Source: Rickettsiales bacterium (GTDB taxonomy: Bacteria > Pseudomonadota > Alphaproteobacteria > Rickettsiales > UBA1997). Taken from it: 26,735 bases of DNA. The translations under genes and the position numbers were made by a program. The stretch covers positions 1 to 26,735 of the forward strand of contig JBLHNE010000001.1 of the NCBI GenBank assembly GCA_047619265.1, read 5' to 3'. This document shows, one piece after another, positions 13,921 to 26,062 of this stretch (positions are counted from its first letter, which is position 1; every line of letters starts with the position of its first letter). Under the pieces are notes generated by a model, which saw only the letters and a program-made list of their open reading frames with translations, did not search any database and was not told where the DNA came from.

Positions 13921-15645
13921 CTAATTTTCCATTAATTTTCGCGCTGCCGCCAAAGATTCTTCGGTAATTTCCTCGGCTGAGAGCATTCGGGCTATTTCTT
14001 GTTCTCTGGTTTCTAAGTTTAAAGCTGCGATTGTGGTTTTAGTAATATTTTGCGTAGTGCTTTTTGAAACTTGCAGATGATGACTAGCTTTTGCGGCAAT
14101 TTGCGGGTGATGAGTTACCACCAGAATTTGTGCATTGCTAGAAAGTAGTTTGAGCCTTTCGCCAACAGCATTTGCAACTGCTCCGCCAATTCCAGAATCT
14201 ATTTCATCAAAAATTAAAGTTGGGGTTGATTTAACTTCTAAAAGCGCAACTTTAAGCGCCAACATGAAACGCGACAATTCTCCGCCAGAAGCAATTTTTG
14301 AAATATCGTCTAAATGGCTGTTGGCATTAGTTGCAGCGGCGAATTTAATGTTGTCGATGCCGTTTTTGTTGTAATTTTCTGGATTTAATTTTTCAATTAC
14401 AACTTCGAATTTAACTGCGGCCATTTTTAAATATCTCAGCTCATTTTCAACTTTATGGGTTAGTTTAGCGCCTGCCTCAATTCTTGATTTTCTAAGTTCT
14501 TCAGCTTTTTCTAAATATTCTTTTTCTAAAATATTTTTTTGTTTGAGCAAATCTTCTGCTGCAACTTTAAAGCTCTTAACTATTGATAGTTTTTCATAGG
14601 TATTTTCCAGAAAATAAGGGAGATCGGTGGTGGCAATATTAAATTTTCTGGAGAGGCTTCTGATTAAAAATAGTCTTTCTTCGATTTCGTCTAGATCGTA
14701 GTTTCTGCCGCCAATTCCTGATATTGCCGAATTGACAATATTTTTTGCCAGATCGTTTCTGGCGGAAATTTCATCTAGAATATTAATTAATTCTTCTAGA
14801 ATATTTTCCGGTGTATTCTCTTTAGAATTATCTTTGACATTATCTGAATCGCTTTCTTTTTGATTCAATAAGCTTCCTAAATTTTGATTGCGAATTAAAG
14901 CTTTACTGGCGGAAAAAATTCTGTTGTCAGCCTCGTTAACAGAGCTTAAAACTTCACTTAAAAGGTTGGTAATTTTTTCACCATTTAAAATTAATTCTCT
15001 TCTTCCTGATAAAATTTCTTCCTCTCCAGATTCAGCGTTGGCGCTTTTAAGCTCTTTAATAATATGCTCTAAATAATCTTTCTCTCTTTCATTTGCTTCG
15101 GCTTCGTCATTTAATTTTTGTAATTGTTTTTTAACATTTTCCAGCGAGCCAAAGGTTTGATTAACTTCTAAAATTAAATTTTTGTGATTGGCGTATGAGT
15201 CGAGAATGACGCGATGAAAGATTGGTTCTAGAAGGCTGCTAGCGGAATGTTGGCCGTGAATTTCAATGAGGCTGGATCCGACTTTATTGAGCAGATTAAC
15301 GCCAACAGAAATATCGTTTACAAAGGCTTTGCTGCCATTTTCGGTTAATATTCTTCTTAAAATTAAGAGATTGGAATTTTCAAAATTGGAAAGCCCATTT
15401 TCGCGCAAAATTTCCTGACAGATTAAGTTGTTTGAAATGTCGAATTCTGCCACTACTAAACCTTGATTTTCTCCTTTGCGCAGCAATCTGTTGCTAGATC
15501 TGTAGCCAATTGCAAGGCCAAGGGCATCGAGCAAAATTGATTTTCCTGATCCGGTCTCGCCAGTTAAAACTGAGAAATTATTTTCTAATTTAATTTCGAG
15601 CCGATCAATTAAAACAATATTGTGAATTAAAATTGAATGAAGCAC
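13921..15645 (-). CDS. recN: DNA repair protein RecN
   Basis: GTG start. Walker A TGETGSGKS, IHGQH, signature SGGELSRF, Walker B IFDEID, VTHHPQ. Confidence 0.96.
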   Translation of the reverse strand: MLHSILIHNIVLIDRLEIKLENNFSVLTGETGSGKSILLDALGLAIGYRSSNRLLRKGENQGLVVAEFDISNNLICQEILRENGLSNFENSNLLILRRILTENGSKAFVNDISVGVNLLNKVGSSLIEIHGQHSASSLLEPIFHRVILDSYANHKNLILEVNQTFGSLENVKKQLQKLNDEAEANEREKDYLEHIIKELKSANAESGEEEILSGRRELILNGEKITNLLSEVLSSVNEADNRIFSASKALIRNQNLGSLLNQKESDSDNVKDNSKENTPENILEELINILDEISARNDLAKNIVNSAISGIGGRNYDLDEIEERLFLIRSLSRKFNIATTDLPYFLENTYEKLSIVKSFKVAAEDLLKQKNILEKEYLEKAEELRKSRIEAGAKLTHKVENELRYLKMAAVKFEVVIEKLNPENYNKNGIDNIKFAAATNANSHLDDISKIASGGELSRFMLALKVALLEVKSTPTLIFDEIDSGIGGAVANAVGERLKLLSSNAQILVVTHHPQIAAKASHHLQVSKSTTQNITKTTIAALNLETREQEIARMLSAEEITEESLAAARKLMEN

Positions 15646-15803
15646 TAGATTTGCAGGTGTTTAAGGAGAAAAAATTGAAGTTTCATAAGTTACTTAATTG
15701 GTCGTCAATTATCAATATTAATCAGTCGCTGTAATATCAAATTAAAGCTATTTTTTGAAAATCCTTATTTGGCCCGATTTTCTATTCAAAAAAATTAATT
15801 TTT

Positions 15804-16634
15804 TTAAAAAATATTTGCCATTCCATCTTGCACAATCTTCTCATTTAAAAAGACCCCATTTTCAAAAATCTCAATTTTGCTTTGACCAGAAGTTTCGCTT
15901 GTCGATGTTAGTGGGTAAAAAATATCGCCAATAAACCTGCCAAAAATATCTACCTTGTTGGTGCGAACTACAACTTCACCTAAACTTGCCGCCAAATCTC
16001 GCAAATATCGGAAGGAATTTTGCCCTGCATCTGTTTTTATTTCTGGTGCGTCAATTTGCGCTAAGCGAATTCGCTGTTTTTTAAAAATATTAAAACCAAG
16101 ATCAACATTTAAAATTAGAGTGTCGCCATCAACCACATCAAGAATTTGAGCTTGGTAGAGGTAGTTGGCTTTAGTTGGTCTTTGAATTTTTTTGGACGAA
16201 ATTTCTCCACCAGAATTATTAATATTCTTAAGTTGCACTCCTAATTTTCCTGCTGACCAGCCTTCAAATTTAGCTTTTTCCTCTAAATCTAGCCGCAAAA
16301 CTTCATCGTTAATGGTGATTAAATAGCGGTAATGCGACCAAGAAAGTGTGCTATTAATGGGTAAATTGGGGTATGTAAGGAAAAATTGCACTGAACGGGT
16401 TAGGGTGTTTTTGCTAATTTTCAAATCATCAGAAAGTTGATTAATGATGAGCTGTGAATAATTGGCATTTTCGCTCATTTTTTCCAAATCAATTCTTTTG
16501 CCAATTTGCCAATAGGTTTGAACTAATTGATTTTTAGCGAATGTTTCAATCTTTTCTTTTGTGGCGAAAATGAGATTTGCTAGGTCTGCAGAGAGTTTTG
16601 AATATTGGCTTGCGTTGAGAATTTGATTTTCCAT
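15804..16634 (-). CDS. DUF1016 N-terminal domain fused to a thermonuclease (SNase) domain
   Basis: The N-terminal half has YhcG/DUF1016-N hallmarks (YWQIGKRI, LSWSHYRYL, R..LEEKA..EGWS). The C-terminal half has SNase motifs VVDGDT(169-172), IRLAQIDAPE (R190, D195, E198) and DIFGR (R233). No signal peptide is seen. Confidence 0.8.
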   Translation of the reverse strand: MENQILNASQYSKLSADLANLIFATKEKIETFAKNQLVQTYWQIGKRIDLEKMSENANYSQLIINQLSDDLKISKNTLTRSVQFFLTYPNLPINSTLSWSHYRYLITINDEVLRLDLEEKAKFEGWSAGKLGVQLKNINNSGGEISSKKIQRPTKANYLYQAQILDVVDGDTLILNVDLGFNIFKKQRIRLAQIDAPEIKTDAGQNSFRYLRDLAASLGEVVVRTNKVDIFGRFIGDIFYPLTSTSETSGQSKIEIFENGVFLNEKIVQDGMANIF

Positions 16635-16661
16635 TTTGAGTTGATTTAAGAATTATTTAAA

Positions 16662-16681
16662 AAATCCCCGCACGGGGATTT
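16662..16681. repeat. Perfect GC-rich palindrome AAATCCCCG-CA-CGGGGATTT
   Basis: 9-bp arms with a 2-nt centre, 27 nt upstream of the DUF1016-SNase ATG. Confidence 0.85.
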
Positions 16682-16853
16682 ATGTAATATTAAATTTTTA
16701 ATTCTACAGGTAAGAAATTAAGGAATCTTGAGAAAATTTAGAAACAGCAATAAATAATAGGGTTAAATCTATTTTCTTGAAAAAAGCAGCGACAAGGCTA
16801 ATGTTCAACTAGCTTAACCATCGTTCAAGATGCCTGATCAATAATTTAAAAAT

Positions 16854-17243
16854 ATGTTTGAACTACACAATCAATTAAAAAAAGATACGATTTTGGTTAA
16901 AGATTTAAAGCTTTGCCAAGTTTTATTAATTAAAAATGCGCTTTACCCTTGGTTTGTTTTGGTTCCTAGAAAACCAGATTTGGTGGAAATTATTGATTTA
17001 TCGAAAGATGATCAAATTTTATTGATGGAAGAAATTTCTTTGGTAAGTCAGCAAATTAAAGAAAACTTTAAAGCTGATAAATTAAATATTGCCGCTCTTG
17101 GAAATATGGTTCCCCAGCTGCATATTCACATTATTGCGCGATTTAGAAGCGATGAAACTTTTCCAAATCCAGTTTGGGTAAGCTCTAAAATGGCTGAGTA
17201 TGAGGAAGAAGAAATTCAGAGAATTATTGAGATTATGAAATAG
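16854..17243 (+). CDS. HIT-family hydrolase
   Basis: 129 aa. Motifs YPWFVLVPR, DKLNIAALGNMVPQLHIHIIAR, and PNPVW. Confidence 0.9.
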   Translation: MFELHNQLKKDTILVKDLKLCQVLLIKNALYPWFVLVPRKPDLVEIIDLSKDDQILLMEEISLVSQQIKENFKADKLNIAALGNMVPQLHIHIIARFRSDETFPNPVWVSSKMAEYEEEEIQRIIEIMK

Positions 17244-17263
17244 ATTCTAATTTTGCAAAATCT

Positions 17264-19006
17264 CTAAACTATTTTTCCGTAAATTGTTTTTCCGTTTTTT
17301 GCACTATCTTGATAGATGATGTTTTTAACAAATTCGGAATCAGTATCTCTAAATGCCTCAAGATCTCTATTGATTTCTTTCTTTTCTACTCCGGCCGATA
17401 AAAGACCGGCTTTTCCAAGCTGTAAGCCAGTTTCAAGATTTTTTGAAACCACCAAACTAGCTCCTACTCTTTTGAATCTATCGGCATTACTTAAAGTTTC
17501 AGTTTTGGTTACAAGAGTTATTTGCGGAAAATTTTCGTGAATAAATCTAGTAATTTTGATGCAGGCAAGCTCGTCTTCCATGGCCACAATCACTGTTTCT
17601 GCTTTGTCGATTCCGACATATTTTAAAATATCAAGATTCATGGCATCTCCATAATAAATATTGTATCCGTTGGATTTTTCTATTCTAACCACGCGATGAT
17701 TATTATCTAAAATGAGGTAGTTAATGTCGCGTTTGCGCAAAAGATGGCCGACAATGCGCCCAACTTTTCCAAAGCCAATGACCACAATATGTTTAGAAAT
17801 ATCGCCAATTTCTCTTTTAATTTTATTATCGTGAAGTACATCTTTAATGTAGATTTGGCCTTTAATTTTCTTACCAATGGAAGCCAATAATGGAGTGACT
17901 GCCATGCTAAGAGTTACCACAGTCATTAATATTTGCGATAGTTCGGGGCTCATAATTTTTTGTTGCACCGCAATAATAAACACGATGAAAGCAAATTCTC
18001 CGCCTTGAGCGAGAAGCAATCCAGAGTGAATTGAAGGCGCTAGAGGAAATTTAAATAGGCGACATAGGCCAATAACGATTAGAGCTTTACAAACAATTAA
18101 TGCCACAGCAATGACGATAATTAAATGCAGGTTTTCAAGAAGAGTTTGAAAGTTAAAAGACATTCCAATGGTGATAAAGAATAGGCCCATCAAAAGCGAT
18201 TCTAAGGACATTATCTCGTTTTCAACCCGATATTTGTATTCGGTTTCTGCAACCATTAATCCTGCGACAAAAGCGCCAAAAGCAAGGGAAAGACCGAGTT
18301 TGTAGGTAATTAAGGACGATCCAAAAATTACGATTAAAGTTACGCTTAAAAACAGAGCATTACTTTTTAAGGCAACAACTAGTTTGAATATTGGTTTTAA
18401 TAAGAATCGACCAATGACAAAAATAATTGCCATGGCAATTGAGGCATCGACAACTGCGCCACCAAAGGCTTTGGGAATGCTAAGATCGGGGTTGGATAGA
18501 AGTGGCAGTAAAACTAGAATTAGAATTACCGCTAAATCTTGCATGAGTAGAACTGAGAAAGAAAGCCTTCCAACCCTAGTAGATTTTTCACCACTTTCGT
18601 CGATGACTTGTAGAACAATTGCGGTTGAGGAAAGCGATAGAGCGGCGCCAATTAAGAGTGATAATTCGGGGCTTAAGCCTAGATTGTAGCAGATCAATCC
18701 GATAATGGCGGAAGTTATTATTATTTGTAAACTGCCAAAACCCAGCACATATTTTTTCATCGCAACAAGCTTGCTTAGCGTGAGCTCGAGGCCAATTGCA
18801 AAAAGTAGAAATACTACACCAAATTCGGCAATTGCGCTGGTAGTTTTGTTTTCTTGCAAAAGTGCTAAGCCGTTTGGGCCAATTGCTGCGCCAGCAACCA
18901 AATATCCAAGGGCAGGGCTTAAGCCTAATTTTTTAAAAACAATAACAATTGCAACCGAAGCAAGAAGTAAAATTAGGATGTCTTTTAAATAGCCAATATC
19001 GTGCAT
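17264..19006 (-). CDS. kefB: CPA2 monovalent cation:proton antiporter with TrkA-N domain (KefB/KefC-like)
   Basis: Many TM helices. Motifs GVVFLLFAIGLE, SSTAIV, QDL, GAFVAG and QGGEFAF, plus a C-terminal Rossmann fold (GFGKVG, YGDA). Confidence 0.85.
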   Translation of the reverse strand: MHDIGYLKDILILLLASVAIVIVFKKLGLSPALGYLVAGAAIGPNGLALLQENKTTSAIAEFGVVFLLFAIGLELTLSKLVAMKKYVLGFGSLQIIITSAIIGLICYNLGLSPELSLLIGAALSLSSTAIVLQVIDESGEKSTRVGRLSFSVLLMQDLAVILILVLLPLLSNPDLSIPKAFGGAVVDASIAMAIIFVIGRFLLKPIFKLVVALKSNALFLSVTLIVIFGSSLITYKLGLSLAFGAFVAGLMVAETEYKYRVENEIMSLESLLMGLFFITIGMSFNFQTLLENLHLIIVIAVALIVCKALIVIGLCRLFKFPLAPSIHSGLLLAQGGEFAFIVFIIAVQQKIMSPELSQILMTVVTLSMAVTPLLASIGKKIKGQIYIKDVLHDNKIKREIGDISKHIVVIGFGKVGRIVGHLLRKRDINYLILDNNHRVVRIEKSNGYNIYYGDAMNLDILKYVGIDKAETVIVAMEDELACIKITRFIHENFPQITLVTKTETLSNADRFKRVGASLVVSKNLETGLQLGKAGLLSAGVEKKEINRDLEAFRDTDSEFVKNIIYQDSAKNGKTIYGKIV

Positions 19007-23605: not shown

Positions 23606-26062
23606 ATGAAACATCACATCATTCCGGTAATTATAAGCATTTCTTTATTTTTTATTTCCCATCACGCAAATGCGAAACAAACATATCTTGGTGATGATAT
23701 TTCCTATTTTGATGTTAAAGAATATAAGGGAAATGTTGATCTAATCCAATCCGCTCATGACGGAATCTTCGTGTCTGCATATCGCTTAATGAATGGCCTT
23801 GGTATGCCAGACAAGAATAAACTTAAATCACAAAAATATCACTCATACAATAATTTCGGCAGCGAATGGCAAAAAAAAGTAAAGAATATTTTAGACATTA
23901 ATAATTCCTCATGGAGAAGATGTATTTCGGAATTTACAATGAATCTTTTGGATGAAAGGATAAATAAATTGGGAATATCACATCAATATTTGAAAGATTG
24001 GATAAAAAATCAAGAACTGGTTTTTGACAATTGTCAATATAACTCTCCTTTGTCTTTACCAAATTCCTACAAAACAAAGAATAAAGATTCTGATATTTTA
24101 AAGAATTTCAAAAAATATGATCACCAATATCAAAAAGCATCAGCATATTTTTATGCCAGAAAATTTGATGAATCTATTGCAGAATATTCAAAAATAACCT
24201 TAGAAAATAATTCTCCTTACAGAAGCCTATCATATTACATGATTGCCAGATCTTTAATTCAAAAAGGAAATGAAGATGGTGCATATGATAAAATCCAACA
24301 GATTTTAAAGAATGATCAATTAACAGAAGTTCATCAATATTCTCGCGATTTATTAGCAGTTTTAGCCAACAAATCCGGCGATTCAAAATATCATCTTGCT
24401 CAATTGGAGCAGATATTAAATCCTTTATTAAAAGAAATGAAAACCGACGAAGATCGGAAGTTTCTGGAAGATGAATTTAAAACAATAAATTACAATTTAT
24501 GGTATTATTTAAGCTTCAATCAGGGCAATGTTGATTCTGAGATTTTTGCTAAATTCGATATGTTGGATTGGATTTTAACTTTCACAGTTCCGGGGATGTA
24601 TATTAAGGATACTAGTTGGGGTGATAAAATTTCAGATAATTGTGACGAAAATTGCGATGATGATTCCAAATCAATGCAAACCCTAGGTCATTCTATAGAT
24701 AAATGGCACCAAACCAAGAAATTGCATTGGTTAATTGTAGTGGCACTTAGAATACCTCAAAATCATCAATTTCAGGAAGAATATTTATCCACTTTTAAAG
24801 TTCTTAATGACAAAGTAAAAAATAATAAAGCTAGTGATGAAGAACTTTACGCCTACCCAACCATAATTCATCACGCCGTAAGATTGATGCTCAATGCAAA
24901 AAAATATGATGAAGCTGAAGCGATAATTAACTCATCTTTAAACTATCAAAAAGAATTTGCTCCAAGAATAGCTTTTCATTCTGCAAAATTCTTAATTGCA
25001 GCTGGAGAAAGTGAAAGAGCGCAGCGAATTATTAACGCAGCAATAAAGCAAGATGAATTTATAAATGCTGGCAGATTCTACAATCTAAAACAAATCTTAG
25101 CTAAAGATTTAGATGAATTAATATTAGTCAGCACAAAATCTTTAAAAGATCGCGGTAAATATTACAGCCCTTCAATCGATGATTCTCTGGCAAATATAAT
25201 AAATTTGCTGCCTTTAGATAAAATAGTGCAAATTAGTAACAATAAATTACTTCCCGCCGAAAAAAGATCAGACTTAAAACTAGTTGCATGGACAAGGTCC
25301 ATTTTATTAAAAAGATATGATGTTGCCGATAATCTGACTAGCGATCTTAAAAAAGAAATCCCCCAACTATTGCCTTATTTAGAAAGATACTCAAAAGCCA
25401 AGAACAAAATAGATAAGCAAAAAGCCGCAACTTATTTATTCCTCAAAAATCCTAGAGTCAGACCATATATTTATCCCATAAATTACTATGGCGATTATTT
25501 GCCTCAAGACTCCGCAAAATTAAGCAAGTTTGAAACCATAGATGTAAGAAATCACACTTATAATAACTGGTGGTGCGCAATTGATCCCGATGAGCTTTTA
25601 TCAAAAGCAAAAGAAGGAGTTTTCAATCAGGTTAAATCAAAAAGCATATTCGAATCAGGAAGCTTTTCTAGATCGGGATATTATCGAAACCCTCCAGCAA
25701 TCAATAATACTAAGTTTTTAAAAACAGTAAAAGACTTGGCCGATAAATATCCAATCTTTAAATTAGTAGATTACAAAGAGTTAGAAGAGTTGCAAAAAAC
25801 CGGTCATGCTACTCAATATTTGGTAAATCAATCTGTAATGTGGTACAAAAATAAAAGCTCATTTTCTAAAATGGATAAACTGTTGCCAGAAGCTCTACAT
25901 AGGGCGGTGAAAGTAACTAGATATGGGTGTAGTAAAGATCAGAACAAAGAAATATTTTCTAGAAAAGCATTCAAAACTTTGCATTATAACTACGATGCTG
26001 AAAATGAGTGGATAAAGAAAACCCCTTATTGGTTTGGATATGGGTTGCCTTCCAAATTATAA
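23606..26062 (+). CDS. Secreted helical-repeat (TPR-like) hypothetical protein
   Basis: 818 aa. Sec-type signal peptide (…LFFISHHANA|KQ), TPR-like helices (YQKASAYFYARKFDESIAEY), 6 Cys, and C-terminal motifs NNWWC, PEALHRAV..TRYGC and KTPYWF. Confidence 0.8.
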   Translation: MKHHIIPVIISISLFFISHHANAKQTYLGDDISYFDVKEYKGNVDLIQSAHDGIFVSAYRLMNGLGMPDKNKLKSQKYHSYNNFGSEWQKKVKNILDINNSSWRRCISEFTMNLLDERINKLGISHQYLKDWIKNQELVFDNCQYNSPLSLPNSYKTKNKDSDILKNFKKYDHQYQKASAYFYARKFDESIAEYSKITLENNSPYRSLSYYMIARSLIQKGNEDGAYDKIQQILKNDQLTEVHQYSRDLLAVLANKSGDSKYHLAQLEQILNPLLKEMKTDEDRKFLEDEFKTINYNLWYYLSFNQGNVDSEIFAKFDMLDWILTFTVPGMYIKDTSWGDKISDNCDENCDDDSKSMQTLGHSIDKWHQTKKLHWLIVVALRIPQNHQFQEEYLSTFKVLNDKVKNNKASDEELYAYPTIIHHAVRLMLNAKKYDEAEAIINSSLNYQKEFAPRIAFHSAKFLIAAGESERAQRIINAAIKQDEFINAGRFYNLKQILAKDLDELILVSTKSLKDRGKYYSPSIDDSLANIINLLPLDKIVQISNNKLLPAEKRSDLKLVAWTRSILLKRYDVADNLTSDLKKEIPQLLPYLERYSKAKNKIDKQKAATYLFLKNPRVRPYIYPINYYGDYLPQDSAKLSKFETIDVRNHTYNNWWCAIDPDELLSKAKEGVFNQVKSKSIFESGSFSRSGYYRNPPAINNTKFLKTVKDLADKYPIFKLVDYKELEELQKTGHATQYLVNQSVMWYKNKSSFSKMDKLLPEALHRAVKVTRYGCSKDQNKEIFSRKAFKTLHYNYDAENEWIKKTPYWFGYGLPSKL

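Follow-up and report, generated by a model that had tools for sequence, protein, structure and literature searches.

A DUF1016_N-thermonuclease gene of a Rickettsiales bacterium and its paralogs are each paired with a dispersed family of perfect palindromes

On what might a stand-alone nuclease gene act when it lies between two housekeeping genes in one genome and is missing from the same place in related genomes? The question is raised by a 26,735-nt stretch of DNA from a Rickettsiales bacterium of the UBA1997 lineage (positions 1 to 26,735 of contig JBLHNE010000001.1, assembly GCA_047619265.1), here called the window. The genome, G000, comprises 1.36 Mb in 174 contigs, is 84% complete and was compared with six congeners (G001-G006). 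Between recN and a HIT-family gene, an open reading frame (ORF) on the reverse strand at 15804-16634, stop codon included, encodes P0001, a 276-residue protein in which a DUF1016_N domain precedes a staphylococcal nuclease (SNase, or thermonuclease) domain. The initial annotation of this DNA was drawn to the domain fusion and missed the most informative feature of the locus, a palindrome in the leader of the gene that has copies dispersed in the genome. What is new here is this cognate palindrome, present upstream of most copies of the gene, together with its dispersed families; by the domain fusion alone, P0001 does not stand out from the other members of its uncharacterised family.

When the 5' flanks of the gene and its relatives were aligned, a perfect palindrome emerged, GC-rich at its centre and AT-rich in its outer arms; in most cases it lies 15-65 bp before the ATG. 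In the window it occupies 16660-16683 (perfect part 16662-16681), 27-47 nt upstream of the ATG, and reads AAATCCCCG-CA-CGGGGATTT; we refer to its repeat family as F5. Perfect stems of at least 9 bp were found within 150 bp upstream of 15 of the 22 genus and family copies, compared to 1 of 21 downstream flanks, and at a threshold of 10 bp the counts were 12 of 22 upstream and 0 of 21 downstream. The corresponding figure for ORFs of G000 was 29 of 936 (Fisher p 3e-12, with kin that are not independent of one another). Distant homologs gave a similar picture, with stems of at least 9 bp in 13 of 32 upstream flanks, 1 of 30 downstream flanks and 1 of 27 regions far upstream.

The 26 leader palindromes collected in this way have stems of 9-21 bp, with 3-4 types of Watson-Crick pair at each of the first 9 positions, and their inner 6 bp are 66% GC compared to 25% in the outer arms. 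Two core types dominate, GCTAC-NN-GTAGC and GCCC(C/G)-N-(C/G)GGGC, and the first of these also stands upstream of homologs just 36% identical, in a metagenome-assembled genome (MAG) labelled Planctomycetales. Several distant homologs carry a palindrome within the coding sequence, at amino acids 90-99, in one case with the GCTAC core; no internal coding palindrome was found in this gene or its close paralogs.

The pairing of gene and palindrome is repeated across the paralogs of G000, which holds three intact copies of the gene, namely the one in the window (contig C1) and those on C108 and C95 (55-58% identical), in addition to a decayed copy on C94 and an N-domain fragment on C162. Four of these genes adjoin a palindrome that is dispersed in the same genome, with one family per gene. 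F1 (7 copies of a 32-mer at no more than 3 mismatches) is paired with C108 and F2 (7 copies) with C95, both intact genes, while F3 (3 copies) belongs to the decayed C94 gene, in whose leader the F3 arms survive without the core. F5 has 3 copies, one at the gene in the window (C1:16660) and the others at C12:8876 and C16:2176. The solo repeats match the leader of the paired paralog across the whole of the 32-bp arms, and their flanks are unrelated to each other, so it is the palindrome itself that is repeated. The palindrome has also been inherited with the gene through speciation, F1 being present in G000 and G005 and the F3 arms in G002 and G000; the palindromes of the C108 gene in G000 and the C30 gene in G005 are one symmetric C/G change apart.

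The same one-to-one arrangement was observed in G002, G005 and G006. In G002, 3 and 4 further sites carry the leader palindromes of the C15 and C43 genes, respectively, and GCCC-type leader cores recur 2-6 times in G002, G005 and G006. Pairing of paralog and repeat extends to G042 (more distant Rickettsiales MAG; 5 sites with exactly its gene's core). Counts of GCTACNNGTAGC follow this distribution, with 19 in G000, 14 in G002 and 8 each in G005 and G006, compared to 0 in G001, G003 and G004 and 0-3 in 34 further relatives; the reversed-pattern control gave 0-1 in G000-G006, and the estimated chance expectation is ~0.35 per genome. Cognate palindromic repeat families of these nuclease genes were not described in the literature that we searched.

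Having the congeners at hand, we could compare solo copies with their orthologous sites, and these copies are lineage-specific insertions. At C32:9535 in G000, a 32-bp F3 element directly follows a stop codon; the orthologous spacers in G002, G005 and G006 measure 9-20 bp and lack the element. The F5 copy on C12 lies within a 185-bp spacer whose flanking genes abut in G006. The F5 copy at C16:2176-2196 (L201) is inside a conserved gene of 986 amino acids and coincides with a gain of 7 codons that is absent from five congeners and corresponds to an in-frame insertion of the 21-bp palindrome, although the exact placement of the gap is ambiguous. Genus searches with genes unique to G000 yielded no empty site. 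Three further observations concern these sites: the C16 mini-insertion resembles the palindromic elements of Rickettsia; long ORFs also contain copies of F2 (C14:9867 and C42:2974); and the C12 spacer holds a second hairpin (C12:8900-9040, L194) with 19-bp arms and a loop of ~15 nt.

The protein encoded beside the palindrome is probably a real nuclease, active by its predicted catalytic set. Residues 19-136 (16227-16580, reverse strand) match DUF1016_N (PF17761; E 4.3e-16, 59.7 bits, cut-off 32.8) in Pfam, and the C-terminal domain (residues 155-276; 15807-16172, reverse strand) matches SNase (PF00565; residues 188-274, E 5.7e-5, 24 bits, cut-off 21) and, over residues 151-244, PHROG 452 'endonuclease' (E 4e-23). 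An AlphaFold2 (AF2) model built with 39 family members as input (mean pLDDT 86.4) places an all-helical N-domain at residues 8-140, followed by a disordered linker and an OB-type C-domain, which superposes on staphylococcal nuclease with Foldseek (E 1e-6, TM 0.68, rmsd 1.8 A, 121 columns) and with VIA (Z 12.2). Both domains had been predicted in the initial annotation from the letters alone, as had an intact catalytic set, and profile alignment bears this out: D171, R190, D195, A196, E198 and R233 are equivalent to D21, R35, D40, T41, E43 and R87 of SNase. Among the 39 family members, D169, D171, T172, R190 and R233 are invariant, E198 is retained in at least 90% and position 195 is D or N. 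No match to PF06250, the PD-(D/E)XK nuclease, was found in P0001 at E<=1, the C-terminal half being SNase. The N-terminal segment is a polar helix in which a hydrophobic signal segment is absent, and the protein is therefore most likely cytoplasmic, as the initial annotation had also proposed.

For the N-domain, comparison with solved structures by sequence gave no match. By fold, its nearest solved relatives are the helix-turn-helix (HTH) domains of ParB (parS-bound), Spo0J, KorB (operator-bound) and SopB. Residues 36-141 superpose on the ParB, KorB and SopB HTH domains over 89-99 residues at Z 5.4-8.1 in VIA (8.1 for ParB-parS, 7.4 for Spo0J, 6.8 for KorB-operator), although Z below ~13 may reflect an arrangement common to helical domains. 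The HTH domains of ParB, Spo0J, KorB and SopB all read inverted repeats. The likeness of the modelled N-domain to HTH domains that read palindromes is no more than suggestive.

Our reading is that P0001 is a site-directed stand-alone nuclease that recognises its cognate palindrome, and that gene and palindrome form a pair like those of repetitive extragenic palindromic (REP) sequences and their REP-associated tyrosine transposases (RAYTs), with no tyrosine transposase; we give this a probability of roughly 0.55. Under this reading, the helical DUF1016_N domain would recognise the GC-cored perfect palindrome, probably as a dimer, and the SNase domain would cut nucleic acid near it in a Ca2+-dependent manner. 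Binding to the leader copy would also give autoregulation. The further copies are small insertions scattered in the chromosome, each paralog having its own family. Cognate recognition with cutting nearby is the most economical account because the palindrome is inherited with the gene, its core is deeply conserved and the pairing is one-to-one. We infer the binding itself from these patterns, and what the protein would cut, and whether it would drive the spread of the repeats, are stated here on the same conditional footing.

Comparison with known systems shows how far each likeness goes. As in REP/REPIN-RAYT (TnpA_REP) systems, a single gene per family stands beside a cognate dispersed palindromic repeat, with several pairs per genome, and the repeats are uniform within a genome, turn over between species and persist beside a decayed gene (PMC3116915, PMC5581495). 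The defining feature of RAYTs fails, however: P0001 combines an HTH-like domain with an SNase hydrolase in place of a Y1 HUH transposase, whose Pfam domain (PF01797) is absent from P0001 and had no match in G000, G005, G006 or G001 and one in G002. Unlike REPs, the repeats are perfectly palindromic over 20-50 bp and have GTAG at the centre rather than as an unpaired end tag (PMC3733652); moreover, a single upstream copy flanks the gene, and copy numbers are low (3-7). With the YhcG/DUF1016 proteins (PF17761 plus PF06250; PDC-S02), P0001 shares the N-terminal domain, including the conserved SWSHY motif, and its family is likewise stand-alone, patchy and uncharacterised, YhcG/DUF1016 being associated with mobile DNA in Rickettsiales (PMC4316617). 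It differs from them in a C-terminal nuclease of SNase OB-fold rather than PD-(D/E)XK, and in the palindrome, which in the P0001 lineage lies in the leader and not within the coding sequence.

The other likenesses are partial too. Staphylococcal nuclease (PF00565; also YncB and the RP4 ParB nuclease) shares the fold with the Ca2+-ligand and catalytic residues, whereas P0001 lacks a signal peptide and is fused to a putative DNA-binding domain, and several family members have Asn at the D40 equivalent. ParB, KorB and SopB read inverted repeats as dimers and their fold superposes on the N-domain, but no sequence similarity was detected, the N-terminal CTPase domain of ParB is missing and the Z scores lie in a range that helical domains may reach by chance. 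Rickettsia palindromic elements (RPEs) are, like the solo palindromes, short palindromic insertions in Rickettsiales, some of them in frame in conserved genes; they measure 100-150 bp and have no assigned gene, while the palindromes here measure 20-50 bp, with a nuclease paralog for every family.

Several findings weigh against the proposed recognition and cutting. First, for a helical domain the fold matches of the N-domain are of middling strength (Z 5-8), and no alignment column or residue cleanly separates the proteins with GCTAC cores from those with GCCC cores. Second, perfect arms of 15-25 bp exceed what an HTH dimer needs, which suggests a hairpin, a cruciform or a copying mechanism, and an SNase cannot rejoin DNA, so that it does not by itself account for the spread of the palindromes. 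Third, no palindrome was found at the two paralogs of G003 or at the homolog on a Leptospira plasmid, so the link between gene and palindrome is not obligatory. Fourth, F5, the family of the gene in the window, is the smallest, with 3 copies, and its shape of A-tract, GC-stem and T-tract is also that of a bidirectional terminator. Lastly, the genomes are fragmented MAGs (84% complete and 174 contigs for G000), and G000 groups with G002 and G005 in a single-marker tree, so the co-occurrence of genes and repeats may go back to one or two lineages and to few independent events.

Among the alternatives, the one that survives best is a single-gene anti-phage or anti-plasmid nuclease of the YhcG/PDC-S02 kind, with an operator or terminator as its leader palindrome and dispersed palindromes that are unrelated mini-elements of a common hairpin design. 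Residues 1-167, the N-domain and part of the linker, match 25 PADLOC models for PDC-S02; these leave the nuclease domain uncovered, and PDC-S02 is an unvalidated defence candidate listed in surveys only. Patchy presence, diversified paralogs and decayed copies are as seen in defence genes, and homologs occur on plasmids and in phages, yet the gene sits among housekeeping genes and in no defence island. Agreement of the solo repeats with the paired leader over whole 32-bp arms goes beyond a shared design, and a nuclease with a recognition site in its own chromosome would call for some form of self-protection, for which no partner gene exists. These observations speak neither for nor against a defence role, and we regard this explanation of the locus as unlikely.

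We consider it improbable that the palindromes are RNA hairpins (terminators, attenuators or mRNA stabilisers) and the protein a hairpin-directed RNase that acts on its own mRNA and on the messages that carry solo copies. SNase does cleave RNA as well as DNA, and the leader hairpin has the predicted fold, with a z-score of just -1.6 and a U-run after the stem. A terminator scan misses this hairpin because its loop is 2 nt. Solo copies frequently lie 0-30 nt from stop or start codons, and the palindrome stems vary in a compensatory manner; however, some copies stand between divergent genes or inside ORFs, the stems are perfect, and the few imperfect copies show no detectable G-U bias. In F3, a T-run precedes the stem and an A-run follows it, which is not the layout of a terminator, and the ParB/KorB-like HTH fold of the model suggests duplex DNA as the partner. 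No Rfam family was found in 15400-17300 and the promoter scan of the region gave nothing above shuffles, including a promoter-like pair of hexamers upstream of the palindrome (16754-16783, reverse strand) that matches the consensus.

Slightly less probable again is that palindrome and gene together form a homing-type selfish element, in which cuts made by the nuclease at solo palindromes are repaired in a way that copies the gene next to them. Similarity between clade-A orthologs stops at the stop codon and 15 bp past the palindrome, orthologs lie in different contexts, with many copies at contig ends or synteny breaks, and the recN-HIT site is empty in congeners. Signs that the gene was copied recently are absent: each genome has one gene copy per palindrome family, the paralogs are 45-69% identical, and the clades predate the species, with divergence within a clade resembling that of RecN. 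The empty recN-HIT sites of G003, G004 and G001 contain no matching cognate palindrome that could have served as the target, and SNase is not a known homing-endonuclease fold. A housekeeping DNA-repair nuclease acting with RecN, suggested by the position of the gene next to recN, is scarcely credible, contradicted as it is by the lack of conserved linkage: this adjacency is unique to G000, recN has other neighbours in five congeners, the other copies of the gene are in other loci, and the gene is absent from the 97%-complete G001.

Beyond the site-directed nuclease that we favour for this locus, we tentatively raise a broader possibility, that genes joining DUF1016_N to a nuclease are the master genes of a second, RAYT-independent class of gene-repeat partnership, in which each paralog would use its ParB-like HTH domain to read a perfect palindrome of its own, and nuclease action there would generate, maintain or spread mini-palindromes in small genomes, including in-frame insertions into genes. 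To our knowledge, DUF1016/YhcG is a very large family that appears in mobilome and defence surveys and has no known function, and we know of no enzyme for many palindromic repeat families, such as the CGTC-type REPs and the RPEs of Rickettsia. If true, a RAYT-independent partnership would give a gene to a class of palindromic repeats so far without one, would extend the idea of long-lived gene-repeat partnerships from REPIN-RAYT to a different class of enzyme, and may explain the entry of small palindromes into genes of reduced Rickettsiales genomes. With a distinct palindrome family for each paralog, G000 offers three natural pairs of protein and site in one genome that are directly testable.

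The initial annotation had read the protein as the result of a nuclease swap. It is not a one-off: a word-indexed search identified ~65 protein clusters that share its two domains and its length, the named ones of which carry only the label 'endonuclease YncB (thermonuclease family)'. Related loci occur in MAGs labelled Rickettsiales, Omnitrophota, Planctomycetales, Myxococcales and Elusimicrobia, and Leptospira weilii plasmids carry a 332-aa version (RefSeq WP_039931878.1). DUF1016_N with SNase is thus the standard build of a large uncharacterised family spread over several phyla, to judge from these sequences; the architecture proposed earlier exists but is not local. No paper joining DUF1016 with thermonuclease was found in our literature search, and DUF1016 itself is treated as uncharacterised, for instance in Rickettsia (PMC4316617). 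Staphylococcus epidermidis phages hold a version divided into two ORFs. In phage vB_SepS_BE01 (L197:1839-2594) these are an adjacent 132-aa hypothetical protein and a 117-aa thermonuclease-like protein, which together align to residues 41-240 of P0001 and are either a split form or the product of a missed frameshift.

Within the genus, the gene comes and goes. G002, G005 and G006 have 6-11 family matches each, whereas the 97%-complete G001 has none. The 24 loci that we compared have no neighbouring gene in common apart from orthologous housekeeping genes, and no antitoxin, methylase or transposase was found as a conserved neighbour. Two side observations concern the repeats. A solo palindrome of the C15 type in G002 (C2:60090-60170, L044) keeps, outside the palindrome, ~25 nt of the leader of the C15 gene, perhaps as the remnant of a gene that was lost or copied in part. 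G000 also contains multi-copy palindromes that have no link to nuclease genes (C5:4240, C19, the C35:5099 region, C50:2321, C50:7918 and C94:4340), of two types, CACTAAAATC...GATTTTAGTG and GGTCTGGGTT...AACCCAGACC.

Comparison of the recN-HIT locus confirmed that the gene is an indel between these two genes, where the initial annotation had proposed an insertion. The flanking recN (13921-15645, reverse strand) and HIT-family gene (16854-17243, forward strand), both annotated by Pfam, are direct neighbours in G003, G004 and G001; they are divergent and 68 bp apart in the first two, and separated by ~220 bp in G001. On the recN side of the window, the ancestral spacer is whole (15646-15718) and ends in ...CAATTATCAATAT, as it does before the HIT ATG in G003 and G004. 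The segment missing from the three congeners (15719-16853) measures 1.13 kb and consists of the gene together with 85 bp on its 3' side and 219 bp on its 5' side, the latter including the palindrome. Both sides of the insertion share the motif ATCAATA(T/A)T and a 9-nt match, TTAACCATC, which make a target-site duplication at best a candidate, the junction being inexact.

Elsewhere in the window lies an 818-aa ORF (23606-26062) for which none of the six congeners gave a counterpart at E<=1e-50. The recN-HIT spacer of G001, which has no nuclease gene, contains a different inverted repeat with arms of ~40 bp (L023:1300-1440), probably another repeat family of the genus, and GC-rich repeat motifs like those in this spacer lie downstream of the two copies in G003. 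The closest relative of the gene in the window, 68% identical, is likewise close to kefB in G005 (C50, L028:6667-8431), though oppositely oriented and with two other small genes in between, and the kefB-HIT-recN neighbourhood therefore varies within the genus.
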